The position numbers and the translations under genes are program-made. From positions 682,001 through 746,000 of the forward strand of contig JAYWIR010000031.1 in NCBI GenBank assembly GCA_036172245.1: a stretch of DNA of 64,000 bases. Reading direction: 5' to 3'. The stretch is from Raillietiella orientalis. Taxonomy: Eukaryota. The notes beneath the pieces were generated by a model. The model had not been told where the DNA came from, did not search any database, and worked only from the letters and a program-made list of their open reading frames with translations. Shown here in pieces: positions 3,334-58,949 of this stretch; position 1 is the first letter of the stretch, and every line of letters begins with the position of its first letter.

Positions 3334-3339
3334 TTAAAA

Positions 3340-9362: not shown

Positions 9363-9449
9363 CAGTGACGGCGAGGATTTCTTCGTAGGATGGAATTTCT
9401 ACGATTCCGGTTCGCTGCAGATGAATGGTCTGCTTTCGTATTCCTGAAC

Positions 9450-13830: not shown

Positions 13831-13849
13831 GAACAAAACTGCAATTTCG

Positions 13850-18420: not shown

Positions 18421-18499
18421 CATCTCAGTTTCAGCGACCGTTCTGAAGATGCGGATGTTGCGAGTAAAAAAAGACACAATAATAAATAATACAGCAGTA

Positions 18500-33700: not shown

Positions 33701-36339
33701 CATTTACTCTTCATTTAAATCAAAGTGCCGCAAGATCAGCGTCGTTCTTCACATTAGATGCGAATTATACCAATGAATTATACCAAGCTTATGACTAACT
33801 GATTCCGAACGGGTACATTTGATGAGATCTCACTAGTGCTCCGATAGAACTGGGAAGATGCTTCAAACCAGCTTTGTTTCCCCGCATTTCCGCGCATCGA
33901 AAATTCTTCCTGATTTCATAGGGAACTGTGCATTCCGTAGGTCGCACCATGCTCTCGCGCTTGCTTTCCTTCATTCTAAGATTCTGCTATCGATCTGAGT
34001 TCCTTCCTCGGCTCAGCCGCAGCAATTGATAAAATACTTAATGAGCAGTATCGAGAAGCAAGCCCTGTTTGCTTTCTTTAAAATCCTCCATCCACCAGGA
34101 TGAATTTTTCCTTTCTCGACTGGCATTCTCTGAAGCTGATAGCACGTCCGGCACTCACGTGAAATTTGCCCAGATGAGAATGGATGGTGGATAATTGAGT
34201 TTTAATTCTCCTTCTCGTCGGAATACGTTTTCTCATCTCGGCTTGGGACTCGCTTGTCTCAAAAAAAAAAAAATTCAGTTAGTTAGCAGCTTAACTTCCT
34301 TACCTTCATTACGCGTAGAGGATTAGATATTGCATTAGCTAGACACTGAACTTCAGAGCTGTGCATTCCTTCAAAACACGGACTTGCTCTCAAGAAGTTC
34401 TGCGAGTCGAGAAACATCCGAAGCTTTTCTCAAAATTGGCACGCGGTACTTCATCGCAGGAGCGGATTCTCTTGAATGCACAGAATGTTTGACAGTTCAG
34501 CCGTTTCAGAAGTGGCACGTGAAGGAACCTCAACCTTGGGAATCGAGCACCATAGGTTGAACGTATACCTCGGCAGTTTCGATTCCCGGAAGTCCGAAAT
34601 GGAAGATGCCATGCTGGCCTATGGGACTTTGGGAGAACGGGACAGAAAAAGTGCAACGCCACGTGCCTTTTATCTGAGACGCGGCTATTAACATGTACTC
34701 ATAAAAATCAATGAAATTTATATAAAGGTGTTGCAGAAAGACGTAGAGCGAAATTTTCGAAAACACCTTTCCATGTGACTGAATTGTTTCATTTTTTGTT
34801 TATTTTTTTGGTTATGCGGTGGAGTTGGCGGGGCTGCAGACCATCCAGCCGTTTTCCTTAGCCAGGGTGGCCACATTTCTTAGCTACGAGTTTTGCACAT
34901 GCAATTTTTCTCAAATTCGTATAACAATCGTGGTACTTTTGTCTCCAGAAGCTGGACATTTTTCTTGCTCACATTTCCAAATCCATCTTTCCAGCGTTCC
35001 AGTATCTTCGAAAAGAATGTGAAACATTGGGTGTGGGGCAACAGACAAATGAAATTTAAATAAAATGGAGTAATTCCGTGAAAATACTCACACAGTTCTT
35101 GGAAAGTTGCGAATCTCAGTGTTCCGTGGAGGACTCTTTGGGTAGAAGCATTTGTGTAAATGGTACTTTGGAAATCAGGAAGGCTTCATTGGCCCTTCAA
35201 AGGTGTAAGGAGAAAATTGCGAGCTCTCCAAATGACTCTGTTGTTAAAACTCTACTGTTCCATAAGGAACAACTCGGAAATCGGAAGGAAACAATTGTGC
35301 AAAATATCGGGATTGCCATAAACAAGAGCAAACCAGCTAAGAGTTCATATTTGGGGTGTCTGGTTTCATGATTTTGCTCTGGAATCGAAAGGCATCCCTC
35401 TTTGAGGACTGTTTGCTCAACAGATCAACCTGTAATTTGAGGATTCGTCTTGCAAAGTTTGCCGGTCGATTCGTATCTTGCTGTCGCGTCTTTGATTTTG
35501 CTCCAGCTGAATACCCATGTCGGAAATTCTCTTCAACACCCCAACTTGAGCTGCAGATGTTGCACTAGAATTTTTTGACTTTACGTCTAGCGATATCTTG
35601 GTAATTCACAAGATTCAGCTTGATGCTCAGTTCCTTTTTGTGTGTTTTTCCGGCCGCAGCAGCAACACTGTGTTGTACCGTCGTCGGCTCATCCCCGATG
35701 TCTTCGGCTCAACTCCAGGTCGATGGATAGCCTCCGGAGCTTCCTCGCAGCTCGGGGAGACATCACTTGTTCGAGGGCTGGACTGACAGCCCTTCGGGAC
35801 ATTCCTCAGCTGCCGCCAACCTCGCCCGTCGTCCTTGGCTCCGCTCTCGCCTCACCTGGAAACATTAATTCCATATTAAGTTCCTTAACATAGAATTAGT
35901 TGAACTGAATGCTCTTCGGAGAGAGTGATGGACGCATTGCCGCTTGCGAGTAAAAGTTTTCAGGGTCTCCTACATCCTGAAGTGCATTATCTAAGAGCTT
36001 TGATCAATCACTAGAGGATAGAGGGTAAAGAATCTGGTTGCCACTATGGTGTGTTGCTTTCAAAGACACATGTTAATTTCAGATTGCACGTCAACGTGAT
36101 TTCAGAAATTCCCACAGTGAATGGAGATCATTTTCAGAAGTGTAAATTCACGCAGAAACGGGAGGTCTTAAGCCAGCTTTATCGTAAAGATTCCCTTTCC
36201 ATCTCTAGCCTCATACTGCTGTTTTATAATTGTGTCTTAGTAAGCGTAGCTATTCAACTGCTGCTTCAGCTCTCCCCTTCCATCAAAAATTTTTGCATCC
36301 TGTCGTCCAGCCGTTGACCCAATCGATGCGTCCAATAAA

Positions 36340-38935: not shown

Positions 38936-39499
38936 GACACCTGAACCCAGCAGCAGAAGAACGCACTTCACTTGGAACTTGGACAATTTCGCCCCGGCTC
39001 ACGGACTCAATGCTGGCATCGCTTCTGGTTGTGAATGTAAGCTGGTATCTGACCATCTTGAAACCTCTGACTTATGAAATAAGCATGCAAAGAAGGATGC
39101 ATCCTCTTAGTTAGGAAAGACTCGAGAGTCCTCCTGGAAGCAAAGTGGCATCTTCGAGCCACGCAGATCTCCGGAAAATTGCGTGACTCGAAGGTGAGCT
39201 TCATGGGAAAACTGAGTAGAGTGCTCATCCTTGTCTCTCCTCGTCAATCCTATCCTTCTTTCCTTGTAAGGCACAAGCGGCGTGCTTCCCTTTGGAGACT
39301 CAGACCTCAGCCGCCTCGTGAAATCATCAGTAGGAAAATCTCATGCAATTTCCGCTTCTGACTCTCTTTCTGCAACGCTGGTGAAATCCAGAAACCTCCG
39401 AACTTCCCCGTTTACTGACCGGAATTGGAAGTTCACTCTCCGGGCTCCCCTCCAGGAGCCGCGGTCTCATCAACTGCAAGATCCCTACATACTTGGGAT

Positions 39500-39998
39500 G
39501 GGGTAACTTGTTAATTTGCAACTTACGTCCAGTCAGACAAGTGGTAGCCGGTTCTGAGCTTGCACTATCTGTTGTATCTTCCGAGAAGAAACCTGCCGGG
39601 AACCGGCAGGCAGGCCAGTGGGTTTGCCTCTCCAGCACAGGGGAAGGGGAGACAAACAAAAAGAAAAAAATAAAATAAAACATACACTCAAAAAAACGGG
39701 GGGTTCGGGAAGGGATCACCGTGTGCTAGAGCACCCTCCAGCTGAATACCCTTGAGGAAGCTGCATCCTTGTAAGGATTCCGGCAAGTCCCTGTTTTATG
39801 GTTCCCAGATGGGGCCATCTTGTCGCTGCCCTCATGACGAGGATAGCAGAACAAATGGCGTCCCTGTCGTTCTGGCCTCCTTAGGCGCTCTTCCATGCAG
39901 CCACGATCCCACCTCGTGGGCAGCAGCATTCTGCTGCCCACGAGGCTGCTAGGGACGCGGCCGGCGTGAGGGCGTCGCGCAGGAAGAGGCGCTTTAAA
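39500..39998 (-). mobile_element. 3' half of the Tx1-like element split by the bacterial insert
   Basis: Colinear with the uninterrupted copy at ~47940-48313, up to aggaagaggcgctttaaa. Confidence 0.8.
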
Positions 39999-40015
39999 AT
40001 TTTATATGCAAACCT

Positions 40016-40231
40016 TTTGCATATAAAATTCCCTCTTCAGCTCTGAACTTAAGTGATGAGGGTTTTCTTGGGATAAAGACTGTTGATGACGATGGTTATG
40101 TAGTATTTATACCAGTAGAAATTGTTGATCATGAGAGCCATGGGACTTGGGTGGTAGCACATACCGAAGATAAACCTAGAAAATTGATAGTGCTAGACCA
40201 CTTATTTGTTAAACCTGGTGATAAGGTTTAG
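40016..40231 (+). pseudogene. RND efflux periplasmic adaptor (MFP) subunit, 3' fragment
   Basis: Start-less frame absent from the ORF track: FAYKIPSSALNLSDEGFLGIKTVDDDGYVVFIPVEIVDHESHGTWV...LFVKPGDKV*, typical of alphaproteobacterial MFP C-termini. Confidence 0.75.
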
Positions 40232-40455
40232 TTTGCGTAGACTTCGGTTGTCCAAGATGTAGCGGTTAAGCGGACCTACTCCAACAAGTACCTTAGCCAG
40301 TGTTTTCTGTACTGCATGGCAGTATGTAGGAGTTGCTGTATAGCTTTTTCAACATAGCAAAGATGTGCTCTTAAAGTGCAGTCGTGCAGCAGAACACAGG
40401 CAAAATTGCTATAGCTAACTTTATTGCGGTATTGTAATTTGGTTACATAATAGAC

Positions 40456-40490
40456 GATGTCATCCAAGTAGCCGACACTGGGATGACATC
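40456..40490. repeat. Wolbachia palindromic repeat
   Basis: gatgtcatccaagtagccgacactgggatgacatc hairpin, matching the TGTCATCCxAGT...ACTGGGATGACA repeat type. Confidence 0.8.
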
Positions 40491-40507
40491 CTTCTGGCAG
40501 GCTCAAA

Positions 40508-42047
40508 TTACAATATTCGTATAGCTGCAACCCGAGAGATACTTCCTCTTATCCATTGCATATATTGCACGGTGCTATCGACTTGGTCATTGTGATTTGC
40601 TTCTGGAAACATTAAAATCTCATACTCAGAATCATTGAGCCATATCGCCTGGTGCGGCAGAAAAACTTTTCCAGACTCTATAGTCGGGGCAATCTGGTAG
40701 AATCGAGCGAGTTTATCATCATGTGGTACTATTTCAACAACGTGCAAATCACTGCTTGTCTTCAGCTCTTGCACCAATTGCTGACCGCTTGTTTTGGCTT
40801 CGATTAAAATTGCGTGTGGTGCCCATCTTGCAGCCAGTGGCAGAACTTGCTCTTGAAGTTTTGGATACTCAAGCTTTGCACGATACACGTCGAGTAAATA
40901 GAATTTATTACCTACCTTTGCCCAGGTAGTGCCCACGCTAAAGTTGCTGGCGTTGCTGTTGAAACCGCAGTATCCCAGCTCTGGGTTACATGCGAGAGAT
41001 CATCAGGAAAATTTCTATAGCGCTTCAACCACTCTGGTTTGATTATACCACTTGAAAGCGGCAGAGGGTTTTGTTGATATTGAGCAGCAAAAGCATAACT
41101 CCCAAGTTCAGCCTTTATCGTCTCAACTCCTTCTCTTCCTCCATCTGTGGGATATCTTCTTCTCTTGAGTATAGCAGGTCCAGCACATGACGCTGGTTTA
41201 TTATGCACCCACCTAGTGTACCCATTTGCAGTTACTTGGACGACAGGAACAGGAGTTTTGATTGAACTTCCTTATTTTCAGAAATCATAGGTAAGCAAAT
41301 ATAGTGCCATATATTTTTTTGGCTTAGAGAGAAGGTGTCCGGTCAAGTCCTCCAGGTGGAGTCTGTTCATCACAGGAATAATTACTCCCTTTTTCCTGAG
41401 CCTGCTTACTAAAGTCCGGTCGAACCAGTTTGTAGCACGCTTTCTAAGCGTTTCGCTCAATGCTTGAGTGGAGCTCAGCGGATCATCCACAATGATGAAA
41501 TCACCGCCTTCACCGGTCAATGTCCCTCCAACAGATGTTGCAATTCTATATCCTCTCTGCACTGTTTGAAACTTATATTTATACCAACCTTTATTATTGG
41601 GAAGACAAATAGGACATATTACAAATTTCCTTATGCTCCCTAGTTATGCGCAAGGCAGCATCTTTTTAATTTGTCCTATTACCAGTGAAATTTGGTATTA
41701 GTATTTTGCTCTTTGGATAGTTCTACCTACGGAAATAACTCCTTATAGCAACTAGGCTGCATTATGCACCTTGTTTCGAGAGAGTGCTTTTCTCTAAGTC
41801 GCCGGGAATAGCTCGAGACTATTCTTCTCGCAGTTGGCGGATTTCCCAATATCCATGGGGGCCATGCAACCCTGAGGCACATGGACTTCATCGAGCGCGG
41901 AGGCACATTGAATATTACGCGCCTCACTTCACCGGCACTTGCCGCTTCTGGCCTGTCTGCCACGACTCTCATATATTGATGGTCGTTATACCCACCCTCC
42001 GGCATCACCGTTTTAAAGCATAACTCAATGAATTTCAAAAAGTTTAT
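40508..42047 (-). pseudogene. Phage/GTA-type terminase large subunit pseudogene
   Basis: NVPPRSMKS (Walker A region), GGTLTGEGGDFIIVDDP (Walker B region), AQYQQNP, QSWDTA, ILIEAKTSG, HNDQVDS; premature TAG at 41727-41729, several frameshifts and a MITE insertion. Confidence 0.9.
41582..41697. mobile_element. 116-bp MITE inside the terminase
   Basis: TACCAA...TTGGTA ends flanked by TTA on both sides; imperfect ~29-bp TIRs; removing it with one TTA restores EQNTKYKFQTVQRG. Confidence 0.8.
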
Positions 42048-42064
42048 ATTTTCCGTATTAGTCT

Positions 42065-42117
42065 CCTGCCACTCCAGTATCTCTTTTTCTTGCCATTCCG
42101 GTGCTTGACACTGGAAT
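42065..42117. repeat. Wolbachia palindromic repeat abutting the IS left end
   Basis: tgccattccggtgcttgacactggaat matches the TGTCATCCCAGTGCTTGACACTGGGAT repeat type. Confidence 0.7.
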
Positions 42118-42969
42118 GGGTTTGTTGCATGGCAACTAAAAAACCTAGCGGTTACTGACAAAATTCATTATAAAGTGGCCATTTAACTACTAAAGAAAAA
42201 ATATGCCACAGAAAATGTGAAAGTCAGTAATCGACAAGAATATAACAAATTTCTCCAGGAAAGAGGAAATACTTTTCACTGCATTAATCAGGCTATCGAA
42301 AATTGGTACGGCAGTAATCCAAAAATACAAGGTGGTAACTACATTTATAGAGATAAAGTCGTGATTTCAGTGCAAATAATCGCCAATCTCTTTAGAATTG
42401 GATTGAGACAAACAGCCGGATTTATACAAGGATATTTGCAGCAAATAGGAAAAAATTTGGCAGTCATTAGCTATTCACAAGCTTCAAGGAGATCTAACAA
42501 ACTTAATATCAATGATTGTAGAGCTGACAAAAGCAACATGGAAGATATCGAAATTGCCATAGACAGCACAAGTATCAGCATTTATAACGACACTCCTGGC
42601 CACAGCAAGGAAAATAGCGAAGATAGAAAGTATCGCGGTTATGAGCAGGTAAGGAGGCTGAGTGTAATGTTGAACATAAATGATGAAAAAGTTATAGCTG
42701 CAAAATACAGTGACGGCGTCTACTCTGATCACTATGGAGCTTGCGATTTGCTTGAACTCTCAGCACACCATAAAAGCACTATATGCAGATAGGGCATACG
42801 ACAGGCACAAACTTTATAAATTGTGTAAGGAATATGATATCAAGACAAAAGTTCTACCAAAAAATGGTGCGGCAGAGCATCCGAAAACAGAGAGTATGTC
42901 TGACAGGAATGCTGCTATTAGGTTAATAAAGATATACGGCGAAGATGGTGTGAAAGAGTGGGAAAAGAG
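42118..42969 (+). mobile_element. IS5-family (IS903-group-like) insertion sequence, 3'-truncated, pseudogenised transposase
   Basis: Left end GGGTTTGTTGCAT; ATG at 42203 (MPQKM) then frameshift; YNKFLQERG, IGLRQT.GF, AIDST.I, YADRAYD; ends at EWEKR before the C-terminal catalytic region and right IR. Confidence 0.88.
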
Positions 42970-43086
42970 ACTCTAACCATAAGCCGATAGTGGATGGGCG
43001 CACTGTTTGCGCAAATTGCGCTGGAAACGCGATAAGGAGCTAAAGCTACTCCAATCTTATACGAAACATAGAATGACGCTGACGTG

Positions 43087-43958
43087 CGTCTCTGGGGTTG
43101 CCTTCGGGGATCCGTAGGGTCGCGGCAAAGCGTATCCACATGGGACGGAGGGCAACACAATCCACGAGCAGGTGCAAGAAGGACTCTCTTTCTTCGCGCC
43201 TTCTGCAGCTGGAGCTCGCACTTCCCTGGGTCCAGTGGTGTTGGTAGGCGCTTGCAAGGGAGACCCCGGTGCAACAGCAGGGTCGCCTACCCCTGCCACT
43301 GTAGGTAAATGCTCCAGCAAGCTGGGGACCACTGTACTCCCTCCGGAGGAATTTCTAACAGCTCTCCCCAGTCCTCTTAGTAAATCACTCGGGATCGTGG
43401 TGTCCACCAGCTCCCGAGTTGTCCATGGGTTACGCTTGGTAGGGAACCTTCACCCTGGTTGTTTCTGGAGGGACTCCCAGTTTGTAGGGCTTCTCCTGAA
43501 TTTCTTCTTTGTTAGGAACCTGCGAAGGAATCTCTCTCCTTGTTCCCTCCTCTCCTGAAGAGAACCTCGAAGGGATACTTTCCAACTTCTCCGAAGGGAG
43601 TCGCGCGCTTCTTAGAACTCGGGGAAGGAGGCTACCCCCGAAAAGAGGATATCAACCAGTTTCGTGATACGCGATGGACGGTTCCATTTTCGCAACCGGA
43701 GGGAGGAACTCCGAAGGGTTCCTTGATGTTCTGAAGGGGACCCCGGAAGGTGGTCTTCCAATCCCGGCCAGCCAATGGCGCATCCGATAGTTCCTGGAAT
43801 CCTTCAGCGCCACACCCGAGTAGGCCAACCAGCGCCATCCTGCGGGGAGAAATTGAAACGGAGGACGTATCCCCCATTTCTCGGTGTCATCCTTCCCCGG
43901 ACGGGATTCGAACCTGCAGGGCTTGGAGCCGCGCGCAGAAACCGCAGCCACGTGGCCT
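43087..43958 (-). mobile_element. 5' half of the split element: tRNA-like head, 5' block, ORF2 C-terminal piece
   Basis: Perfect B-box GGTTCGAATCC (43904-43914, minus) and A-box-like TGGCTGCGGT; 43087-43430 aligns with 48314 onward and with 11669 onward. Confidence 0.8.
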
Positions 43959-45089
43959 GGGAACTCCGTTCCCAGATGGTTTGTTCTTTTTTGAAGATGA
44001 ACGTCCTGGAGCAACCGGGTGATAAAGAGCCACACGCCTCTAACGCGGGCATTCATTCAGCAAATCACATTGCTAATGCACGGAATGCACAGAGTCTCTG
44101 TTCCATTAAGAGGGAGTGAAGACAGAGATCTTTGCGGAAAGAATAAAATGAGCCGGACGAGCAGAGACTCTCAGTGGTCGCTCCCTAGCGTGTGAGTGCC
44201 GCTCATGAACAAACGGCGCGATCGCAGACAAGATGAATGCAGAAACCATTCCATTCGTCATTAATTGCTCGAATTATGTAAGATGCTTCCTGATCTCGAT
44301 CTGCTGGATTCCCAATCGTCCGGGATGAAAAAGCATCCCTGCTTTTCCATTTTTCTCTCCCCCCATGCACGTCAGCTTGGAAGGAATTTATAGGCGCTGC
44401 AGCATGACGGTTCGCAATGGCAACCACGCTACTGAGGTCCCCACTGAGGTTTCCGTCTTTGCTATGAGGAATCATCCTGAGAGGCATCCCACGTGGGCCC
44501 GGTGCAAAAGTGATTCCTAGGCAGCCGGGAAGATTCTCAGATTCTATGGAATAAGGGATTTGAATCGCAGGGATACTTGAATCTACAAGGGGAGGTGCGG
44601 TCGAGGACAGGACGATTTTGTGGGCCGCTCACTCGAGGGTTCCTTGGGCTCACGTCGAAGAGGAACCAAGCACGGCCCTTCTCCTCACCCTTTGAGGATG
44701 CAATCACTGCGGAAAGGAAGCTGCACAACGCTCATTATCCATCCGAGCCCGGGGTAACGCAGCCGGAACGTCTATTTAATTAAACAAATAATTACGCAAT
44801 AAATTCACTTTAGGAAGGCACGCAGTGTGTTCGGCTGCTGCCATGCCAAGGGCACAGCGGTCAGGAGATATGATGGGCGGAAGGCTAATAAATGCGTACA
44901 GTGCTGCGGCATTGTGCTTACTCCTCCACTTCCAGCTAGGACCAGCGAGCTCCATTAACGAAAATGCAGTGATCACGCGTCGTGGCCTCAGTGGGTCATG
45001 ATTCAGCCGTTTGCACGCAGCTGATGCACGTGGTGGGTAGCCGCTCGTGGTGCTCTGCGTTCGGACCAAGGAGGAAGTGCAGTCGCCGC

Positions 45090-46015
45090 CGCCACCGGTC
45101 CCGCGCCGCCTTGCTTTTGTGGTGGTGGCACTTCGTCGCTTTGCCTACAGGCTGCGAAGGTAAGGACCTTCGCAGCCTGCTCGCCCAACCCTTGCAGGAA
45201 TGTAGGGATCTGCGTCCGGGAGTCCGAGAACGACTGCTTCTGCAGATGCACCTCGATGTTTGTCGGAGAGTATTGCGAACACCTGAACCCTTGCTATAGA
45301 CCCAAGTGCCAAAACGGAGGGACATGCGACGTCCTCTTGCCCCCGAGTTCTCAGCCGCGATTCTCCTGCTCCTGCCTTCTGGGGTATGGAGCGTCTCTGT
45401 GTGGAATGTGGGTTCCCAGTGCCTGTGATTCAAGTCCCTGCCTGAACGGGGGCTCCTGAACACCGGTGGAAATCAGCATGTTCTTGTGCTCCCGCTCTAC
45501 CGTCTACCGAGGAGATTTCCGCGAGCTGCGCGACCTCTGCGCGTCCCACCCGTGCCGGAACGGAGCGACGTGCCATTCCTCCTGGAACAACTACACATGC
45601 ACGCGCACGAGTCAGTTCACTACAGATGCCGCAGGAGGACCCTCTCTTGCATATGCGTCAATTGCTGAACGGATTAGGACTGCGGAGGAAACGTCCACGA
45701 CTGCACCCGCGCCGCCTGCTTCAACGGAGCGACCTGCAAGGGCAGCTTCCACTGCTGGTGCGCTTCGGGGCTTTGCCATCCGGATGATGCCTGCGCCTCG
45801 AACCCTTACCAAGAGGGCACCACGTGCGGCCAAACCCCGCTGACGGGGGGCATCTATGCTCCCGCCTTGGAAGGTACAAGGGTGCTGATTGAGCCGAAGA
45901 CGCAGAAGAATGCATCGAAGGGTCGCTGTGCGAACACGACAGCGTCTGCGCGAACACTCCCTGGTCGTTCCTCTGCAATTGCAGCAGAGGTTTCACCGAT
46001 CTACTCTGCGAAATC
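45090..46015 (+). pseudogene. N: Intronless Notch 5' fragment (signal-peptide-like segment, EGF1-4 joined to EGF8-11)
   Basis: CSPNPCRN...FVGEYCEHLNPC..CQNGGTC...VPSACDSSPCLNGG...LCASHPCRNGATC, then CICVN...AACFNGATC...CHPDDACASNP...YKGAD...EC.EGSLCEH..VCANTP.SF.CNCSRGFT; matches arthropod Notch repeat order; stops, lost Cys, deletions. Confidence 0.88.
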
Positions 46016-46019
46016 GGCT

Positions 46020-46400
46020 TCGCTGGTTGCGCTGCCGGAGTTTCAGCAGATAACTAGAAAGTCTTTGCACCGCGGAAGAAGGGCAGAGCCGCACAGAGTT
46101 CCTGTCACTCCAAACGCGATGGCCTCCCGGTCGCGCTTGGAAGCACCAGCGCAGAAGTCTTCTAGAGCTGTTGCCCAGCAGGCTTCCACATCCTCTCTGG
46201 GTCCCTGGACACTCCAGAGACACATGCAGCAGGGATTTCCCGTTTCTCCCAACGAATTCAAAGCTGGGATGCCGCCTCTTCCGACCTCGTGGAACGATGC
46301 ATCCACTTATTATCCTCTTGGATTCCCTGCTCCGTCAATCAGCAAGCTTTTCCATCGGATAGCAAGACCAGAAGAGCAGCAGGACGAGGACTTCAGCTGA
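46020..46400 (+). mobile_element. L1/Tx1-type reverse transcriptase remnant
   Basis: RKSLHR (KAFDR-like), QQGFPVSPNEFKAGMPPL (QGxPLSPxLFxxxMxPL) and WNDAST (YADD-like) in order. Confidence 0.5.
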
Positions 46401-47694
46401 ATCTCGGAGGCTCGCAACGGATTTGGCATTCGAAGTTTGGAGGCTGTCTCTGAGGGTTGAACGACCGAACGGTGCTCCTCCTCGGCACATCCCCATAGTG
46501 ATTTCGTGTTTTTCGTTTTCTTCTTCATTCCCATCTCAGTATGGCATCTACTTCTGAGGCTGGAGTCTGCGGGGCTTAGGGCTATATCCGTGGTGCATCT
46601 AATTCTGTCGCTGGGTGGTTCTTGCTCGGATCAATTTGCGTTGCTCGGGAAAAGACCTCGTTCAAAAATCTTTATGCGGTGGCTCCGTCCAATTGCCATT
46701 GCTGGAAGACTATCTTACTACTATCGTGTCTGGCAAGACAGTCCGCTTCACGCGCTGTATATACAGAATTTCCATTGATTTTCTGCGTACAGAATTGAAA
46801 TCATGTTTAAATCATTAAGGAGTAATTTTTCAGAGTCTTCGAGTCTGAAAGAAAGAGAGAAACAAGATTCTACTTGGTTTCCTTGTACTACTCGTAGGAT
46901 TGTGGTTCCATCACTATGCTGGAAAGATAGATGTGACCATCGGCCTGAAGAGTACGAGAAAGAAAGGGAATGAAATAGTTCAAGAATGGCATTAGAGATG
47001 AAACACGAACGACATGACATGGTGAACCACGTATCACATCAGACCACCTAAAGGATCGGTTGCTTACAATATTGAAGCATTGGAAGGCAATGCTTCTCTT
47101 GGCTTATTCTTTACCTCTGCTTATTGCCGCTTTTATCCCCTCTTAGAGCGGCCACACAAGCGTGGAAATTCTGAAAGCTACTCATGAGCAAAACTCCTCT
47201 TGATCTCTTCGTATCCCCAAATGGAGACGCCTCTAAGAAAAAAGAAACTCTGAGCGCTTTTCCAAGAGCTCTTCGACTTCACTTTCAGCTGACTTCCAGC
47301 TCTGCTGCCCAGAAGGGGTTTCAGTGGAAGGCGAAAGGTCTCTTCCTCGTAAATCAGGCTATCAACTCAGCAGGAGATTCTTTTAGAATACGGAAGGAAG
47401 CGCAGTCATGATGCATCGAAAATTTGGATTTTCCAAAGATTTCCGGGTGCCTGGAAAGCTCTCGCACTCAACCTACAAAATGCTGTGATCTGGTTCTCAC
47501 ATAATGTTTTTCTTTCTTACCCATCGTGGAACCGTTTAAAGCCAACATCGAATTCAATATTTCCAAAGCACATCCAGAAGATCCCTTCAGTGCACTTTTT
47601 TTTCCCCCTCTCCCGTGATTATTAAGTGCCATTTTCTCCATCTTTTTTTCACATCTTTTTCCAAAGAAACCAGCAGCCACACACCTGCGTTGGC

Positions 47695-47795
47695 GGTCGC
47701 GTGGCTACAGTCTCCGTGGGTGGTAACAAACGTTGCGGACTCGAATCCCACGCGGGGAAGGATCCATGCCGATAAAGGGATGCGTCGTGGATCTC
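47695..47795 (+). repeat. Isolated tRNA-like head of the Tx1-associated family
   Basis: ggtcgcgtggctac...ggactcgaatcccacgcggggaaggat aligns with the 43958 head. Confidence 0.6.
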
Positions 47796-47842
47796 TCTGC
47801 AAGAGTTCCCTCTGAAAGATAGCGCTGGTCGATCCTTACATT

Positions 47843-49030
47843 GGTTGACACCCGGTCACGCTGGGAAAGTTATTTATAAAATAAACATACATGTTTGTGG
47901 CAGGACGTTTGCTCCTGCCATCTTACTTATAACGACGAGACGGAACCTGCCGGGAACTGGCACGCAGGCCAGCGAGGTTCGCATCGGCAGCACTGGGGAA
48001 AAGCAGAGAAATAAAAATAAAAAATTAAAACAAAAAAACAGAAAATAGGTTGGGGGATTCGAGAAGGGATCACTGCGCGCTGAAGGTTGTCCTCTGCATC
48101 CCTATAAGGATGCCAGCAATTTCCTGTTTCAAGAATCCCAGATGAGGCCATCTTGACGTTCTCATGAAAAGATCAGCAAAATATTTGACGTCCATGTTGT
48201 CTTGACCTCGTCTAGCATTGCTCCACGCAGCCCCGGTTCCGCCGCGTAGGCGGCCAAGTGCTGCTGGGGATGAGGCCGGCGTGAGGGCGTCGCGAAGGAA
48301 GAGGCGTTTTCAAACGTCTCTGGCGTTGCTACCGGGGATCCAAAGGGTCGCGGCGAAGCCTTCCCAAAAAGACCGGAGGGCAACACAGTCCACTAGAAGG
48401 TGCGTAAGGGATTCTTTCTCCCTGTACCTTGCACAGATCCACACACACCCGTGTCCAATGATGCTGACCGACATTGCACGGGAGGCCCCAATGCAACAGC
48501 ATCAACGCCGACTCCTGCCACTTCAAGGGGAGGACACGGGTATTCATAAGCACCGGAGAGCACTGCAGGTCTTCCTCCGGAATACACAGCAGCACGCCCC
48601 AGCGCAAAAGTCCACGAGGTCGAGCCCTCGGAGTCGCAGCGTCGGTGAGCTGACCCGTCGTCCACTCGCCATGTCCTTTCCTCCTTCCGGAGTTTTCCAC
48701 AGTAACCTCCCTTCAAGTCGTAAGGCCGCTGCTACCCATATGCTCCCTAAGGGAGTGCAGCACGGTGGCGAGGGAGATTCTGCTTGTCCACGCACTCTGT
48801 TTGCGGGATCTTCCAGGATCTCCCGGAGCGTGCAGCTGTTGTTGGTGCGCGCGTACAGGAAACGTCGCAACTGTCCTTCCGCGCTTGGCTCCTGGATCCT
48901 CGCCCAAGTGCGAACGGTTCCCTGAAACCAGGTGCTATTGTACGCGGGGCAGCACGAAATCCATCCGTTTTTCCGGACCAGGGTGGTCACCTGCCGCAGG
49001 TGCAGTTCGCAGTGGATGAGGCTGGGAGAC
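47843..49030 (-). mobile_element. Tx1-like LINE 3' fragment (uninterrupted reference copy)
   Basis: LLHWGLPC...CAR..EKESLTHLLVDC...RWPHLG, T-rich tail, terminal hairpin motif at 47843-47875. Confidence 0.8.
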
Positions 49031-49044
49031 TCATCCACTGCGGA

Positions 49045-49600
49045 CTAATGATAACTATAGGTCATCGTACATGTGGTATGGTAGCTCCTGATTGCTTCCA
49101 TCTCCGAGTGCTTCTTACTACAGGATGGGCTGTAGTTCATTGCATCACCTCACAAGCCGCTTGTTTACAAGAGACGCACGTAGCCAATGCAATGAAACCT
49201 GAACGAAGCATCCTGCATAGACCTTAAGTCCCTGTGGATGAATCCTGCTTGATTGAAAAATTCCTTTCCGAAGTCCGCACCTGCAAGTCCAGTCTTTGAA
49301 TCTTCCAATAAAAAGATTAAAATTGAAAAAGCCCAAAGTGCTTGAATTGGAAATTATTTCTAAAAATTTCCTTCTAGAAAGTTCTCTGTGAAATGCAAGC
49401 TCCATCCTTTTTTCGTTTAGCTCATTGGTAACTCCAACGGACGGGATTGCACTTGATACAGAAATCTCTACAGGATTTCGCGATCTGTCGTGAGGCATTC
49501 CTAGTAGAAGGATGCTGTTAAGCAAGCACTGATTGTTCTCTGACACCATTCGATTCCAGGAAAGCCATTGTACAGAATTTGGCTTATCTGGAATGAGGAA
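49045..49600 (+). mobile_element. APE endonuclease remnant of a LINE ORF2
   Basis: MITIG...ACLQETH; later IGNSN (GDFN-like) and FSDT (SDH-like). Confidence 0.55.
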
Positions 49601-49799
49601 GTCGAAGATTATCCGTTGGCGAGACCCATGAAGACTGCAACTGATACTACGCTCTATGCTTGCATCTCTTGTGTGAGATAAACGCGTAAATCGAGGAGGA
49701 AGAAAAGCTTCCTTCCTAACCTTCCTAACCTTTAGATATTTCCTGCTTTCAGGAACGATTGAAACCATACAGAAAACAGGGAGGCATCTCAGAGGGAAT

Positions 49800-50403
49800 T
49801 TCGAAACCATTCAGGAACTGTGCCAGGTGCGGGGAGCATGAATCCCTCCCCCATTTGCTTGTGGATTGTATTGGTCTCCGGTCCCTCTGGGAACGCTTTG
49901 CCTCAACCCTAAAAACTCCCGGCGGCAACTCCAGGTACGCTTTGCGACCCCTCCTCCTACGCAACGCACCCTTCGGCCGGCAGCCTCACAGAATCCCGCG
50001 TAGACAGCAGAGAGCTGCTGTCTACGCGGGATTGTAGCTGCCTGGAGAGACAGGAATGCCATCCACTTCTGCGTCCACTTCATGAGTATGGCTACCTGGG
50101 AAACAACAGTCAGCAAGAATTTACCAGCATCCTCCAAAACATGCAGAGGACTGCCCCCAGCAGAACGTGATCCTTTCCCGCAACCCTCCGAAGTTTATTT
50201 ATTTTTATTCTGTTGCTTTTCTTTTTTTGTTTGTCCCCTCTCCTCTGCTGCCGCGGTGAGACTTGCCGGTCTGCGAACCAATAACATAGCAGATTAAATC
50301 TGAAAGAGATGTGGCTGGACTACCGGTCTGACCATAGAGATCGTAAATATTTTATTTTATCTTATATATGAAATAAGCGCCCCGGTGCACCCAGATGACA
50401 ATC
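49800..50403 (+). mobile_element. Tx1-like LINE 3' fragment
   Basis: CARCGEHESLPHLLVDC; tail and terminal motif at 50371-50403. Confidence 0.8.
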
Positions 50404-50657
50404 GAAACCGTTCAGGAAACTCATTACACAAAAAAAAGGGAATAAAGGTTGCTGAAGTTTAACATCTTGCTCTCGTTCTTCTACACTATCCAGGAAATCA
50501 GAGATCTCGTATTGGATTGGACGGAAGATGTTTCATCATCAGCTTCATAAAAATAGGAAGCGATGCTGGCCAGCTGATGAATTCTCGAAGCGAACTGCGA
50601 CTAACTCTCGAAACTAACTCTGCGACTCTCGAAACTAACAGCGACTGCAAGGAAGAA

Positions 50658-50800
50658 ATGGGAACCCTGGAACACTATGATAACGATGAAGAGGAACGCG
50701 ATGAGATTAAGAACTGGATCCTGGGATTCGCACAAACATCTCAGATCTTGGAGGAGAAGAAAGCCAAAACGAAGCTCCTTTACAGAAACGCCTCGAGCTG
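50658..50800 (+). mobile_element. Possible Gypsy-type gag N-terminal remnant
   Basis: MGTLEHYD..EE.DEIKNWI..F...QILEEKK...LL resembles GxLxxF..ExWxxY..R..F..NxI.DxKK..LL. Confidence 0.25.
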
Positions 50801-52699
50801 GCTGATCGTTGATGACTGCAAGATAAGCGAGGACAGAAGAGTCTGAGAAGAAGAATGAAGAAGAAGTCTGAGAGTGCGCTTCCGGATCACGTCTCGTCCC
50901 AGGAGGTCCCACCTCCCTTTTCCCAGGAAAGTAAGTGGAGGCCGCTGTCACGGCTGAAAGGAACCGTCCTGCAGAAGAGATGATGGACTGAAGCGAATTC
51001 TTTTCCCGGATGCCAGTTTCTTCATCCCTGATGCAGCTGCCTTGTTTTCTGTGTGTGGCTGAATCCTCATATTCTGCCACTAAATTCTGCGAGTTCCTCC
51101 CCTAGTACGAAGTCTCACAAATCACAAAAGTGGACATCACGCATGCACTAGCCAGACGAACCTGACGTCATTATCCCCTTCCCAAGATGGACACCCCTCT
51201 TCGACCACTCGGCATGCTGAGACGAACGTAGACTTCCCGAGAGTGTGATGGCCTCCAGGACGCTCCGAGAATGGGTCTTACTGGGAGAAGAGCAGAGGAA
51301 CTGCGTGGGAGAAGGGGGTTCCACAGAATGTTGGTAGGCGGGCGTCGCAGTAACGAGACCTCCATCTGGGAGGCGATCCCGACCAGCGCGACTTCTTTTC
51401 AACAACGTGTCAGATCTGTTCCAGTCCTGCCTTATTAACCTGCAGAAGCACGAGCTGCCCCTCTCCGTTAACCAAAGGTCTCTATTCAGCTGCATCGTAG
51501 GCGTGGATACCGACGCGAAGTTCTGGATCAACCTCCTGCCCGTCCTGCAGCCCATAAGGGAGCGCGGTGCTTTCTTGAATCCTTGGGTTGTCCCGGAGAG
51601 GTTCCGGATTCCGGAAGATGAAGACCCCTGTATCGAGTGCTGCGCAGACCGCCAGAGCTATTATCTCGAGAGGCGCTGCGAGAAGTAAGGTGTTCCAAGG
51701 TCTTCCTGCCATGATGCGAGACGCGTAGGGACTGCCATCCCCTGTAGCTGGTAGACCTGCTTGTGAATCCCCTGATCCGCCTGACCCAGTATCCCCCTCT
51801 GCTACAGAGATCGGGAACACCCTGGGGGAGCCGGAAACTCTATGAGAATCCAGCGCGCTGGTCCAGGAGGCCCACCTCGGGTCGAAGCAGGACCCAGAGG
51901 TTCACCACCACACCGGCTCGTTCGACATCCTGGAGACTAAGGACGAGGTTTCGGAGCGCCTCCTCCGCTGTGACTCGAACCAAGACTTCAGGGGTGCGCC
52001 GATGCCCAGGTTCGCGGCCAGAGAGAGGAGCCGCCTGAGTGAGGCCAGGTGGTCCTTCCGGCTGGACTGTCTCAACGCCTACCAGTTGACCAGAGGCCGC
52101 TCCTGGGTGACCTGTGGTCTTCTTGAACCACTTCGGCGCCATCTCGGCGGCCTTCATATTGCAACGCGACGGATGCTTGTTGCACGCGGATGCAGCTCGT
52201 CTCTCAGGCGTGGAAGGAGAACAGAGGGCGGCCTTCTACGGGGGAGCTGAGGTCCGTGGCATCCCTCAATACGCCCTCAGATGACGCCTCCGTGGGATCC
52301 CCCCGTCACGAGGAGGCCGAACGAAGGCGGATCCCCTCGCTGGGACTCTCACTGGCCAGGCAGCACCAGGACAGAGAACTAGCCGGGAGAGGGCACGCGA
52401 GGGACGCACTCCCCGCTAGCATCCCCTCCTTTGTCGGGAGACTACCTCCGAGCACCGTGGAACCTGAGAGATGATGGTCCGGCCGTTTCCCGGGAAACGG
52501 AACCGTCCCAGTCTGCTGGAAGGAGGCAGCAGCCGGTGGGCTCATCTCTCCGACGATCCGCGGCAGGCGGCGACCAGGTCAGGATGACAAAGAGCAGAGA
52601 AGAGGCCAAAAAAAAAAAAAACAGTATTTTTCATCAACCACACTGGTCTTTTAACTAGTGGTTTCCTCTTACTCGCTGCCCCATCCTACTGCTTCCTTA

Positions 52700-53905
52700 A
52701 ACAGTCCCCACTGCGAGACGACTTTCTCTGCATCTCGGAACGCAAATCCGGGAGCTTCCATACACGCACGCGGGACCCTACTTAGGGTTCAGGAATCGAC
52801 GTCTCAACCCTTCCCTGCAGCATCTTCTCTTCCTCACTTCTTCCCTACCGTTGTTTCCCCCTCATGTCAGCGTGACGACACCGTGCGCCTTTCGAACTTG
52901 CTCGATGACCCTACGCCATTTGCACAGTGGTCTAAATCACGTCTGACGGAATCCTGTGCCGCCAAGGTCCATCCGTCACCCACGTTATGGTAAATGGCAC
53001 CAAGAGTAGCACCAGTTGCCATCGGTTCTTGCCCAGAAACAGTTATGCACCTTCTTCTCCCCGTAACTTTACTCCGGGTGACCCGTTGAGACTCTGAACG
53101 ATGTCCACCTGAAAGCCTCCATGATGCTATTCATTCGGCCTTCCAGAGTGCCCGACTCACACCCTGCATCCCTTCATCCCTTCGGTTCAGAGCTTCCGTC
53201 GGCAGGTGCGGAAGCTCTGAGCTCGCCTCCGAAAGGACTGCCCGTTCCTCCCCCGTTCTTGGACACCTCCATACCACCCCCTCAGGCGGCGGCACGGAAT
53301 GCTGTGCCTCTCTCTTGCACTGGGGTCTCCCTTGGAACGAGCTCCAGCGTCACGTTACGGGAGGGAGCGCCTCCCCGGAATGTGTCAGCTACGGTGCAAT
53401 CGAATCGCTCTGGTGCTCTCTGCCGACTGCGTGGACGGCTGCTACGTCTCACTCCTCCTCGCAAGTGCATCTCTCGTCTGCCTCCCGCGACCTCAGCGTC
53501 TTGCTGCATCCGCGGCATCCTCCCTCGAACCACAGCAACCCCAACGGGAAGCCACCTACTCCGCTGCTTCCTCCACGAAGAAGGCTTGCAGGTGGTCCCA
53601 TCTGAAAACACAAGTCATCAGAGAGATCGCCTCCATCTTGCAGCAGCTTTAGGAAGGAAGCAGGAATCTCTGTGACCCCGCCCAGTGACCTCTATCATTT
53701 ATTTATTTGTGTGTCCTCCTGTCTTTCTCCTAAGCTCCTGAGAAAATGTTGCTAAGAAATTCTTTCGCGAACCCCCCCCAAATGAACCTCTTACGCTGCT
53801 TTGTTTGTTCTCCTTTTGAACCACAAGAAACTTGGTTCTCTGTATGCGTATCTTCCTTTTTATATATATATAAATAAACTCCCGGCCTAATCGGGCGAGA
53901 ACATC
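52700..53905 (+). mobile_element. Tx1-like LINE 3' fragment
   Basis: LLHWGLPWN...SPEC...ESL, RWSHL, tail and terminal cccggcctaatcggg at 53881-53895; left boundary uncertain. Confidence 0.65.
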
Positions 53906-54199
53906 TCTTCCTCCCGAACACATTAAAAGAATAGCGCCTGAAACTTGGGGATCTGTTGCACCGTCAGCAGTGTTCCCACAATCCAGTGAGCAAGATCTTC
54001 GTGCGAAATTCACGTCTGGTGTCCCGAAGGCTCCCGATCTGCCCATGTACTCGGCTACGAAACGGAGGAAATTCATCCCATGAACCCGGAGTGGTCTTCT
54101 GATTCCAAACTTCCAAGGAGTCTTCAAATGAGTGTGGCTTCATCCAAGCCCTTTTCCTGAATGTGGAGAAGGAGCATTAGGGAATTTCTTCTCTGCCAG

Positions 54200-55292
54200 A
54201 GCCGCTGTTGATCTCTTCCATCATCTTGAGTGAACTGCATTGCCTGGCTTCAGGAGTCGCTCGTCTCCGCATGGGGGAAGATCCACGGCGTGAGTGAGGC
54301 AGAGTACGCCTGCCTGCAGCGAGGCGTCAACGCTCGCAAGCCGCTAGGGGAGATCGTCCGCAACCGCAGAAGATGCTGCGGATCCCGTCTACCCTCCTTG
54401 CCCCAGTACTGCTCTTCCTCAGGGACGCAAGGGGTAGCGTCATCCCAGCGAGGTGGGAAGTAACGTGCTGCATAGCAGCAAAGACTAAACCTCTGGGACG
54501 TGGACAACTCGGGAGGTCACGAACGCTGCGACCCCGAGTGTTCCACCCTAAGGACTTGCACTGGGGAGACCTGCTCCGCATCCCTCGGGAGGAGATGGAG
54601 TGTCCCTCAGCGAGCTGGAACAGTGGCACTCTTCTCCTCGAGTTCGCGTTGCTGGTGTTGCATGGGGGAATCCCGTGCAAAGAGTACCTTCACCACTGGA
54701 CACGGGGGAGAGTGATCGCGGCAGGTGTTGGAAGAAGGAGACCCTCCTGCATCTGCTGTTGGACTGTGTTGCCCTCTGATCCCTTTGATATCGCCTCGCG
54801 GCGACCCTAGGAATCCCAACGGGCAGCTCCAGGACAACCTTAAAACGCCTCTTCGTGCGTGACGCTCTGCCGAGCCTACAGCCACATCTCTAGCAGTTGT
54901 CCTCTACGTCTGCGGAATCATGGCAGCTTGGAAAACAGGAAGAAGAGGACGAAATGGCATGGACGCCATCCACGTGGGCGGATCTTCCTGAGGACTGCCT
55001 GGAGATCCTCACCTGGGCACTATCCGGACGAAACTTGCCAGCATCCTGAACAGGATGCAGAAGACGTCTGGAAGCGTGCCGTGATCCCTCCCTCACTCCC
55101 CTCTTCACCCATGTATAAATCTTTTTTTCCTATTTTGTTTCCCCTTCCCCCACGCTTTCAAAACGGATCTAGCCGATCTGCGCGTCGCTCTTCGGCAGGT
55201 TCATTGCAAGTGGTGGAATCAAGGATTCTACCATACCAATGTGTTTTTATTGCTTCATATAAGAAATGCCCCAGCATAACCGGATGACAATC
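54200..55292 (+). mobile_element. Tx1-like LINE 3' fragment, paralog of 11380-12400
   Basis: LVLHGGIPCKEYLHHW...RC.KKETLLHLLLDC; terminal motif at 55261-55292. Confidence 0.8.
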
Positions 55293-56786
55293 ATTTTGAG
55301 CGTGTACATCCGAATCCCGTTGCTTGTGCTTCACTCAGGAGACATCGGAAAGAGCACGCTGCACCATCGTTGCAAGCGTGCCCTTTTCTGACCTCCATGC
55401 CTTCTACCGGAAACACGAGATCTGCCTTTCTGCGCTCTTCGACCACAACAAGGAAGGAGAAAATGTGCCGCCATCAATCAGATCCATTCTGTCTAGCTGT
55501 CGGAGAAAAGAAACCAAACAACTGCCAAGCGCTAGACCATGAAGGAACTGGTCATCCTGATCCATCAGAAGAACTTGCGTCCACGTGAACTCCCTCATTT
55601 CACTGGACAGCCAGTGTTTTCCCAGGTGGTTCGTCAATGCAACGTGCTTCATCCAGCTTGCGCTCCCGTTGGCATCAATTTTTTGCTCATACGTTTCCGT
55701 CTCACTTTGCTTCGGACCTGACAGCTCGTTTCGAATCCCGTGCTCCCGGGGACGAATTTGTCGTCCACGTATCAGTTGTGGTGGGGAACAGGCCACCATC
55801 GGTTTTTAAAATTGCTAGCCTCGCTTCCAACTCGTCGGCTGCTTTTTTTTTTTTCTTCTTTTGAGCAGCTGAACGAATTGGACAGTAGATGTCGCGAACG
55901 GATGGGTTTGCATTCGCTGAGGGAAAGTGAGGAGCCTATCAATCTTCCTTTAAGGAGATTACCGTGGTTGAAGGCTCATTAGAAACATTGCCATGCACAA
56001 CTCAGCATAATGGATTCGCGGGCTTGAAATGACGTTTTCAATCCCTCACGCAGCTTTAATGCGCAACGAGTTGGACTTTTCCGTGCCTGCTTCTCTGCAG
56101 GCACGGTTGGTGCCATGCTCTAAAACGCCCCAAAACGTATCCGCTTCTTGGACCTCGCCACGAAAGAAATGAAACCGCAGTCGGTGTCTTTGGCCGTTGG
56201 AAGTTCAGCTGGTTTCCTGAGCAATCTCGTTAGCAAAGGATTTCAGGGTTGCCACGTGGGTGTCTACGAGCCAGCTGTGGTCGAGTCATTCAGATAACGA
56301 GATTTCTCTTTCTTTCTTTTTTCTGTCTCTTTCAAATCAGACAGCATGATCAGCGCTTGAAGATGAACAAAGACTTTGTACGAAAAGTTCTACATCATGC
56401 AGAGGATGAGGATATGAGCACGAGATGCAGGAGACGGATTGTGGCGCGTGCACATCCATCCGAATGAGCATCCAGCTCCTTTGGCACTGAGGCAGACAAT
56501 TTTGCAGAGCACCATTGGAAAGTGGTCATAGGCAATTTGCGGATGCGGATTAGAGGACACAGTGAGAAATCAACGAAATGGACTGCTGCATATGAAATCA
56601 GTGGTGAAAATCCTCACGAAAGTTCACTGCGAACGAGAAATCAGAGGTTCTTCTTTCAGGGACGTTCCCAGACAAATCGAAGGAATCCATAAAGATCTCG
56701 CAAATTGAAATTCACTTAAAGACGAAGTAAGTGAAATTCATGAAAGTTCAAAATGAAGTGGACACAATGATCCGGAAGTTAGTGTA

Positions 56787-57689
56787 CGAGGCTCATCTCA
56801 AAACAAAGGGCCGATAGAATATAAAGAAGGAACGAATGAGAGAAACAAAAGTGTATTGGTGGTTCGAAGCCCGTACACCCCTACGTCATTTTTCTACGCA
56901 ATTTTTTTTTTTTTTCCAAACACTTTTGATATCGTGGAAAAAGTTTTTTTAGATCCTCTGCATGAAACCCCGCCATCTGGGAGTTCAGCAGCACTGCAGT
57001 TTTCGACTCCTCCCTTTCCTCGAATCGTTGAGCCACTTCTGGAGCTGCAGGAGGGAAGAGCGTGGTAGTTACTAAGCGGGACTGTAAGGTGGATGATCAA
57101 GAAGTTCCCATTTGAATTTCTGAATTGTCTGGAACGTGTGGACAGCGGTGAGTGGGACGAAAAGGGTGTGTGCCTTTGGTGGACTTTATGGAGCCTGGAA
57201 CAGCCACCATTTATCAATTCTCCTGTGAAACACTTTCAAAGCTGCGGCGTGCCATTCAGAACCGACGACGTGGAATGCTAAGATCAGGAATTGCTCTTCT
57301 CCACGACAACGCGCTCCTTGGCAACAACACATGCTGTCCGCACATCCCAGACAATTCAGAATTCAAATGGGAACTTTTTGATTACCCACTTTACAGTCCT
57401 GACCTCGCGCCCACCGACTACCACGTCTTCGTGCACCTCAAGAGGTGGCTCAACGATTCGAGGGGGAGAGTGAGGAGTGGAAAACTGCAGTGCTGCTGAA
57501 CTCCCGGATGGCGGGGTTTCATGCAGAGGATTCGAAAAATGTGATTCCAAGGTATCATAAGTGTTTGGAAAAAAATGGTGACTACGTAAAAAAATGATAT
57601 GGGGATGTATACGTTTGGAACCACTGATACATTTTTGTTTTTCTCCTTCCTTTACATCTGATCGGCCTCTACTTTTGAGAGGAGCCTCG
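56787..57689. mobile_element. 903-bp mariner-derived fold-back MITE
   Basis: TA at 56785-56786 and 57690-57691; TIR CGAGGCTC.TCTCAAAA; plus strand gives VDFMEPG...KLRRAIQNRRRG...LLHDNA...YSPDLAPTDYH...KCLEKNGDYV; 56787-57146 is an inverted copy of 57332-57689. Confidence 0.92.
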
Positions 57690-58949
57690 TATTTGATTAG
57701 TTATCATACAGATTTTGGGCAAGGTCGAAAATCTCGATGAATGATTCCGAAAGTGTTGCGATTGGTATCGACAACTCTGCCATGAGCTCTTTTCAGCAAT
57801 TGTGGTTCATTCTCGATCTTCTCATGCCTTCTTCGATTGCTTGGCCTGAGATTTCTCGAAATCTCGAGAGCATTTTTGAAAATTCCCCTCTGAAAGAAAT
57901 TTGCAGTGCTTCGTGTTTGGTTGGAAATTTTTTCGACTTCTCAAGAGCTAAAACGTCCTTGCCACCCAAACCTATCTGCCGTCTTCCACGGCAAAAGCCG
58001 CTCTTTCACTCTCCCTCTCGGATCAGTTGTCCTCCTATCGAAAAGGGGAAACACTGGGCGTTTGCTCATGAGTCACGGCAAAGTCAAATACGAGGTCCTG
58101 AATCAGAAAATGGGAGCTCCATCCATCACAGTAATTACAGGTCCGGATTGACGAAATTCATGACTTGGAATTAATGAGTGTATGATTCGTTAATTCATTC
58201 TTGAAATCCGGTTCCCGGTGTCATTCAGTTGAAATGCAGTTCCCGGATCTAAGGTCTGGTGAATTCCACCTGAGGACAGTGATGATAGAACGATGACGAT
58301 GGAATGCGGACGTGCTCGTAGAAGTGTGGTCGAGATGAACATCAGAGACCTCCAAAGAAAATCTTACAATCGACCCACCACGAAAACTCGAACACGCGCT
58401 ATGACTGTTTTCTGCTCGCATGCGCTTCTGAGAGCATCGGAAACCGGAAAAAGAAATTCTTTTTCGATAAATTGATGTAGAGTAAGCAGTTGGAAATAGA
58501 AGAAAGTCATGCAGAAATGAGAACGAAACCCTAGAACGAATTTCATTTTACAGCCAACTGATAGAGATCAAAACACAGGAAGAAAGCATTTTCGCCACAG
58601 ACATTCGTCCACAGTCAAAATAGATAAAAAATTCCTCAGGGAGAGAAAATTCAATAACCTTTTGTGGACATCCAGAGATTCCATTATTAATGAGACATGT
58701 TTTGCATTTTGCATGCCACTTCATCAGATACGAATGCTGCCTCAGAAATAAATAACAACAGTGTCTTACTGGATTCTCATCCACTTGTTCCGATGAAATC
58801 TTCAAGAACCATGATTTGCAGCCTCGTGTAAACATCGCTCCGACCACCTGAACACTCTGTTAAGTGGACTCTGATTTCCATTGATAGGTGTAAAGTTAAG
58901 CAGAGTCAAAAACAGAAACGAGTCAATCGGCGATCATCTTCGGCTAAGG

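Follow-up and report, generated by a model that had tools for sequence, protein, structure and literature searches.

How a piece of bacterial DNA comes to lie within a repeat of an animal genome, and whether it lies there at all rather than in the assembly, is the question raised by positions 40000–43086 of a 64,000-nucleotide stretch of Raillietiella orientalis DNA (NCBI GenBank assembly GCA_036172245.1, contig JAYWIR010000031.1, positions 682,001–746,000 of the forward strand). We refer to this whole stretch as the window and give all positions in its coordinates. The 3.1-kb insert is of Wolbachia origin and separates the two halves of a single copy of a host repeat. The explanation that we favour, with a probability of roughly 0.85, is a nuclear Wolbachia transfer (nuwt) that took place through break repair inside this old repeat.

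The insert is Wolbachia-like over nearly its full length, at 82–95% nucleotide identity. In blastn comparisons with five Wolbachia/Rickettsiales genomes (G001–G005), matches of 73–95% identity covered about 40008–42970, whilst the right-end piece (42950–43086) had no match in these five. The C-terminal open reading frame (ORF) of a phage terminase gene within the insert gave 60 protein matches at E ≤ 0.001, the best with 88% amino acid identity, and those that carried a name came from Wolbachia, from Rickettsiales metagenome-assembled genomes (MAGs) or from annotations of spider genomes. A fragment of an efflux RND transporter periplasmic adaptor at the left end gave 23 protein matches (best 89% amino acid identity), of which the named ones were all Wolbachia or Rickettsiales. 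When one genome per prokaryote species was scanned, 26 of 169 candidate stretches were confirmed, all of them in Wolbachia or Rickettsiales records and often several per genome. The insert had no match in a plasmid collection. A phage collection yielded one WO record, matched solely by the final 72 bp of the insert, and nothing for the terminase at the DNA level. Within the window, Wolbachia-like DNA was absent from the searched positions 1–20000 and 43087–63000, and no second copy of the insert was found in the 64 kb. The Wolbachia origin put forward in the original prediction is thus borne out, as the best matches do not fall outside Rickettsiales and the terminase nests within the Wolbachia copies in the phylogeny described below.

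The host side of the insertion point could be read base by base. The left flank (39582–39999, plus strand) and the right flank (43087–43500, plus strand) are the halves of one repeat copy, which we call copy A. Positions 39582–39999 align to 47936–48314 of a second copy, B (E = 1e-45), and positions 43087–43300 align to 48315–48522 of the same copy (E = 3e-19), the alignment of the right half as a whole extending over copy B 48315–48720 and three minus-strand copies. Copy B itself (47936–48720, plus strand, delimited by pairwise alignments) is uninterrupted, as are further copies at 49814–50250, 54501–55089, 14716–15126 and 11669–12140, all on the minus strand, so that self-comparison and a five-way alignment give five other copies in the window that run without a break across the same point. 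The host motif stops at 39998/39999 and restarts at 43087, and copy B carries the continuous version at 48296–48323. Compared with copy B and three minus-strand copies, the 8 + 9 host bases at the junction in copy A equal the 17 of the uninterrupted copies, which means that no host base was lost or duplicated, and copy B can stand in for the empty site. Since the insert lies inside a pre-existing repeat copy, the transfer must be later than the formation of copy A. The interruption at 40000–43086, the uninterrupted paralogue at about 48296–48323 and this relative order, with the host repeat copy first and the bacterial DNA later, had all been proposed in the original prediction and all hold; the order is independent of the assignment of the host element to a long interspersed nuclear element (LINE) or other retroelement, which we could not confirm.

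That assignment found no backing in the proteins or RNAs of the window. There are 89 stop-to-stop ORFs of at least 110 amino acids, and none of the 84 that lie outside the insert had a Pfam match to a transposon family of any kind, whether reverse transcriptase, endonuclease or gag; Rfam at gathering thresholds gave no match over the whole window; and the ORFs that span the repeat in two of its copies have no real protein similarity to each other. An A-rich tract lies inside the unit common to copies A and B, and no terminal tail or duplication of the repeat was identified among copies that are only 64–72% alike. This level of mutual identity indicates that the family is old. The host element is an unclassified old interspersed repeat, for which the LINE or retroelement label is unsupported.

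The left joint carries a scar. Positions 39998–40015 form an 18-nucleotide filler that is an inverted copy of the adjacent native Wolbachia sequence, as recognised by a repeat search and by alignment to the adaptor loci L039 (G005:C14) and L040 (G002:C66). The joint contains a perfect 15-nucleotide palindrome whose arms (39998–40012 and 40016–40030) are 100% complementary around a 3-nucleotide centre. Positions 39998–40020 align with the minus strand of L039 and of L040 (95.7% in each case), and in both loci the adaptor gene is intact at the palindrome site, with an inner stem there of just 5 nucleotides; the first 16–18 bases of the insert (from 39998 or 40000 to 40015) are not colinear Wolbachia sequence. 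The filler bases 39998–39999 (AA) can be assigned equally well to the host, giving a 2-nucleotide overlap. The centre of the palindrome reads CCT in the window, the reverse complement of a native Arg codon that is AGG in L040 and AGA in L039. A simple snap-back in cis from the native 5-nucleotide hairpin was considered and rejected, as it predicts the native orientation of the centre and the centre is inverted. The inverted centre calls instead for a second Wolbachia template molecule or for a hairpin-capped (fold-back) end.

Judged by its sequence, the left joint looks like a templated filler of the kind typical of synthesis-dependent or alternative end joining. Templated insertions of this sort at repair joints have been described for SD-MMEJ, the synthesis-dependent form of microhomology-mediated end joining, in Drosophila (PMC5728401). 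In that account, the inserted sequence is, as here, copied from within about 30 nucleotides of the break and yields an extended inverted repeat; the other end is engaged through a short microhomology, to which the 2-nucleotide overlap (AA) of the left joint may correspond. Comparable insertions are the subject of two further reports (PMC4912351, PMC5068794). The left joint differs from the SD-MMEJ scheme in its inverted 3-nucleotide centre, which rules out simple one-strand snap-back from the 5-nucleotide hairpin. For the right joint the sole available relative is phage WOVitA2, in which 4 of the 5 host bases just past the boundary recur, and a microhomology of 0–5 nucleotides is possible there, depending on the donor sequence. 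The insert ends inside the RND adaptor gene on the left and inside the tnpA gene of an IS200 element on the right, rather than at the termini of insertion sequences (IS), and there is no target-site duplication.

Considering these joints together, the following course of events can be proposed. The donor DNA would have been 3.07 kb of a Wolbachia chromosome, taken from a region rich in prophage and IS sequences, and would have been partly decayed already in the bacterium. A double-strand break in the old host repeat would then have been repaired by capture of this piece into the animal germ line. On the left, synthesis-dependent (alternative) end joining may have copied 18 nucleotides in inverted orientation from the Wolbachia DNA beside the break, and the filler would have been joined to the host end over 0–2 shared bases; on the right, the join was presumably direct or made through short microhomology (0–5 nucleotides). 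After integration the insert would have drifted neutrally, without function. Given ends that lie inside genes, no target-site duplication and no missing host base, these events can be explained without transposition and without an RNA step. Repair of a break, entry through the germ line and transfer directly from the bacterium rather than from a secondary copy are all steps that we infer.

The decay of the insert is best followed in the terminase. A phage terminase large subunit pseudogene of the Terminase_6C type occupies 40508–42056 on the minus strand (PF17289; PHROG 38/5573/4758). It is full length but broken, as tblastn with an intact 486-residue homologue (P0002) covers residues 2–486 in three frames. 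Identity to the Wolbachia copies is 82–89% at the nucleotide level and up to 88% at the amino acid level. In sequence it is like the Wolbachia prophage terminase of the Terminase_6C type, from which it differs in being dead and lying in host DNA. Nor does it correspond to the lambda-gpA-type terminase found beside the matched stretch of WOVitA2, since P0002 has no tblastn match in L044. Wolbachia genomes carry several copies of the gene, which in G003 occupies at least 8 places.

Changes private to the window were scored in an alignment with six Wolbachia copies, with L003 as the frame reference. They comprise five frameshifting indels (+1, −7, −8, −10 and −1), a 6-nucleotide deletion, a 119-bp insertion and one premature stop codon (TAG). 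The 119-bp insertion (41580–41698, seen as a private block of 119 columns with edges good to about 3 nucleotides) is a short Wolbachia repeat with 30 listed copies across all five Wolbachia/Rickettsiales genomes, and a Wolbachia contig from sequencing run X3 skips 41578–41698. The presence of a Wolbachia repeat inside the gene suggests that the donor bacterium probably carried a terminase that was already dead. The window has 47 private substitutions over 1280 usable columns, compared with 16–31 in each Wolbachia copy. These fall on the three codon positions in the ratio 21:13:13, against 36:31:66 in the six pooled Wolbachia copies (Fisher p = 0.010), and thus show no third-position excess. 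AT>GC changes outnumber GC>AT changes by 29:15 in the window, compared with 63:63 in the pooled copies (p = 0.08), a surplus that points toward the GC-richer flanks. In a FastTree GTR tree of the window and 17 loci, from which nine of the 26 loci were omitted because their matches were shorter than 1000 nucleotides, the window sequence is sister to L014 (support 0.994) and nested inside the Wolbachia copies, on a branch of 0.071 against 0.029 for L014, that is 2.4 times longer. The genes of the insert are dead, and the constraint on the terminase is relaxed. Of the earlier statement that all of the bacterial genes are truncated or degraded, the first term is imprecise, as only the RND adaptor and the IS200 piece are truncated.

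The remaining parts of the insert are of mixed character. On the left, the 3′ end of the RND adaptor gene (40016–40231, plus strand, from blastn and the protein search) comprises about 72 codons and the native stop, with nucleotide identities of 92% to L039 and 87% to L040; the full-length genes in these loci have 390–391 codons, and the 5′ four-fifths are missing from the insert. It is followed by Wolbachia intergenic DNA with short multi-copy repeats (40232–40507, including 40476–40527 and a hairpin at 40456–40490), which has many matches of 45–80 nucleotides, 86–94% identical, in all five genomes. In G005 a segment of 927 bp containing most of a 227-codon ORF (L039 1240–2166) stands between the RND adaptor and the downstream segment; it is missing from the window (at 40245/40242) and from G002, a presence/absence difference among Wolbachia strains. 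The two short repeat families in the insert, of about 119 bp (41580–41698) and about 50 bp (40476–40527), each have tens of copies in G001–G005. The first lies inside the terminase gene and the second at its 3′ end, and both look like miniature mobile or palindromic elements.

To the right of the terminase lies an IS5-family insertion sequence (42118–42970, plus strand; PF13737, PF01609, NF033579), the transposase of which is split by a frameshift into ORFs of 191 and 88 amino acids in different frames. PF13737 scores 59.7 bits (cut-off 28.1), and NF033579 is matched at positions 2–177 and 176–243 of 289, below the whole-protein cut-off because the gene is split. Both ends of the element recur in several Wolbachia genomes at 73–95% nucleotide identity, and it is solely by the ends of these recurrent matches that the element was delimited. 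G001–G005 contain no intact copy, the longest open frame there being 149 amino acids, so that the 191-residue ORF of the window is the longest seen. The insert closes with the end of an IS200/IS605 element (42971–43086, minus strand), namely the last 13 or so codons of tnpA and the element end, identified by its match to WOVitA2. Positions 43015–43086 are 86% identical to positions 12415–12486 of this phage (HQ906663), a stretch that overlaps the 3′ end of an ORF with a match to NF033573 (tnpA).

A second Wolbachia-derived piece lies at 35364–36023, 4.4 kb upstream of the 3.1-kb insert. It is 69–82% identical at the nucleotide level to G002–G005 and corresponds to ORFs of L045–L047. A fragment of the peptide deformylase gene def (35364–35556, minus strand) abuts fragments of the DNA polymerase III epsilon gene dnaQ (35554–35636 and 35873–36023, plus strand), which are contiguous in G002; here 236 bp of DNA that is GC-rich and not from Wolbachia, with no other copy in the window, come between them. 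An identity of 69–82%, compared with 82–95% for the 3.1-kb insert, indicates that this piece is older and more decayed. The pair speaks for at least two transfer events in one 8-kb neighbourhood. A tentative extension of this observation, which we consider possible though doubtful, is that symbiont DNA has been captured repeatedly at this locus, the younger piece bearing the 18-nucleotide inverted templated filler.

The presence of an older neighbour also bears on the alternative that survives best, although we regard it as unlikely: that the insert did not come directly from a bacterium and that its source was instead an older, larger nuwt elsewhere in the host nucleus, from which it was copied through segmental duplication or in the course of break repair. 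The second nuwt 4.4 kb away would fit such a history, as would the composition of the insert, a mosaic of chromosomal, phage and IS pieces with many disruptions already in place. Furthermore, frequent duplication of transferred genes and pseudogenes is described in a study of 45 termite and 2 cockroach genomes (bioRxiv 10.1101/2025.03.16.643567). However, the 64-kb window holds no second copy, and an IS- and repeat-rich donor genome can account for the mosaic, because each of its internal boundaries falls at a Wolbachia repeat or at an IS end.

Much less probable is an assembly chimera or contamination, in which Wolbachia sequence, as a read or a contig, would have been incorporated wrongly into a contig of the host. 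Wolbachia DNA is commonly co-isolated with arthropod samples, and of the two junctions the right one has no read-level support. We compared contigs from three sequencing runs that hold parts of the insert (small shares, 0.05–0.08) with positions 39000–44100. Run X1 contained a 233-nucleotide contig over 39874–40106, with 126 host and 107 insert bases and no differences, as well as the insert-internal stretches 41830–41973 and 42139–42289, also with no differences. No listed X1 record crosses 43086/43087, and none qualifies as an empty allele of copy A, the X1 records over the junction point differing at 3–5 of about 50 bases, as paralogous copies do. The original prediction had named junction-spanning sequence as a check on the insertion; it exists for the left junction and not, among the listed X1 records, for the right. 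Runs X2 and X3 hold insert-internal parts only (within 40016–42970), 90–95% alike and with none of the host flanks, and thus carry related Wolbachia, not this locus. Against a chimera stand the short-read contig across the left junction, the flanks, which continue one repeat copy exactly without loss of a base, the neutral-type decay and long branch of the Wolbachia genes, and the interruption of the older nuwt nearby by non-Wolbachia DNA. The argument, made earlier from the sequence, that a built-in empty site counts against contamination or a chimeric contig is upheld by the exact continuity of copy A. That the DNA arrived by transposition of IS5 or IS200, or by the reverse transcriptase of a host retroelement switching template onto Wolbachia RNA, is the least credible proposal, for although the fragment holds two insertion sequences and the target is a repeat, its ends lie within genes and not at IS termini, a target-site duplication and a poly-A tail are both lacking, intergenic DNA lies between genes on both strands, and the 84 ORFs searched in the window include no reverse transcriptase.

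Several observations weigh against a direct nuclear transfer by break repair, or against parts of it. Frameshifts or stops also occur in four of the six Wolbachia control copies of the terminase, which means that some of the indels in the window may pre-date the transfer; the same fact makes the codon-position contrast, if anything, conservative. The right junction is represented by the assembly, together with the exact continuity of the split repeat, and X1 may be the assembly's own source sample, in which case the left-junction contig is not independent of it. Since the depth of a Logan contig does not measure copy number, it does not show host-level coverage of the insert. As for the left joint, of the two reference genomes only that with L040 (AGG, against AGA in L039) agrees with the 3-nucleotide centre, and the filler fits several routes, trans-templated synthesis and a hairpin-capped fold-back end among them.

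Two features of the host flanks deserve mention in their own right. Copy A contains a private, perfect 15-nucleotide palindrome with a 4-nucleotide spacer (39912–39945), 55 bp upstream of the junction, the second arm of which is present neither in copy B nor in three further copies. Its form resembles that of a second templated inverted duplication, which may have arisen in the same repair event as the left joint or independently of it. About 2 kb from the insert, a GC-rich region (45025–46400) contains Notch-like epidermal growth factor (EGF)-repeat ORFs in several frames. The only Pfam matches among the host ORFs are two weak ones to EGF, at 45025–45840, and a search with one of these ORFs (P0061), in which a length filter excluded proteins over 2000 amino acids, gave distant matches only, the best being a spider Notch fragment with 54% identity over 56% of the query. 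The region may represent exons of an EGF-repeat gene of the host or a copy of such a gene that has decayed. The resemblance of these ORFs to animal Notch-type proteins identifies the flanks as animal DNA.

The locus is an ordinary nuclear Wolbachia fossil, as transfers of phage and transposase pseudogenes from Wolbachia to its hosts are well documented and usually functionless. In the termite and cockroach study, 281 transfer events were estimated, with Wolbachia as the main donor, yielding 289 genes and 2,494 pseudogenes among which phage and transposase genes are prominent and neutral decay is frequent (bioRxiv 10.1101/2025.03.16.643567). The nuwts of arthropods and nematodes are likewise host-integrated Wolbachia fragments, mostly pseudogenised, rich in phage and transposase genes and neutral. 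The present insert does not differ from them in kind; what it adds is a base-exact stand-in for the empty site and a readable repair scar at one joint. A parallel can also be drawn with the nuclear copies of mitochondrial DNA (numts), for which end joining is the accepted route of integration. As set out in one account (PMC3798261), numts are captured at chromosomal breaks with little or no homology and no target duplication, as appears to have happened here, the differences being that the donor is a mitochondrion rather than a bacterium, and that the left joint described here has an inverted templated filler rather than a blunt join. We found no study of nuwt junction scars in the literature that links Wolbachia and lateral gene transfer to either microhomology or end joining, a weak sign that the base-level anatomy of such junctions is little described in the open literature.

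In conclusion, the insert is evidence that a Wolbachia with relatives among the Rickettsiales MAGs G001 and G005 once infected the host lineage, and it is an example, resolved to the base, of the fixation of bacterial DNA in the genome of an animal. As paralogous copies of the repeat serve as the empty site, contamination is very unlikely. Rarely is the way in which symbiont DNA was stitched into a host chromosome as readable as at this left joint. Should inverted fillers prove to be common at nuwt junctions genome-wide, this would indicate that bacterial DNA enters the germ-line chromosomes of animals through alternative end joining of the polymerase theta type, and not through classical end joining.

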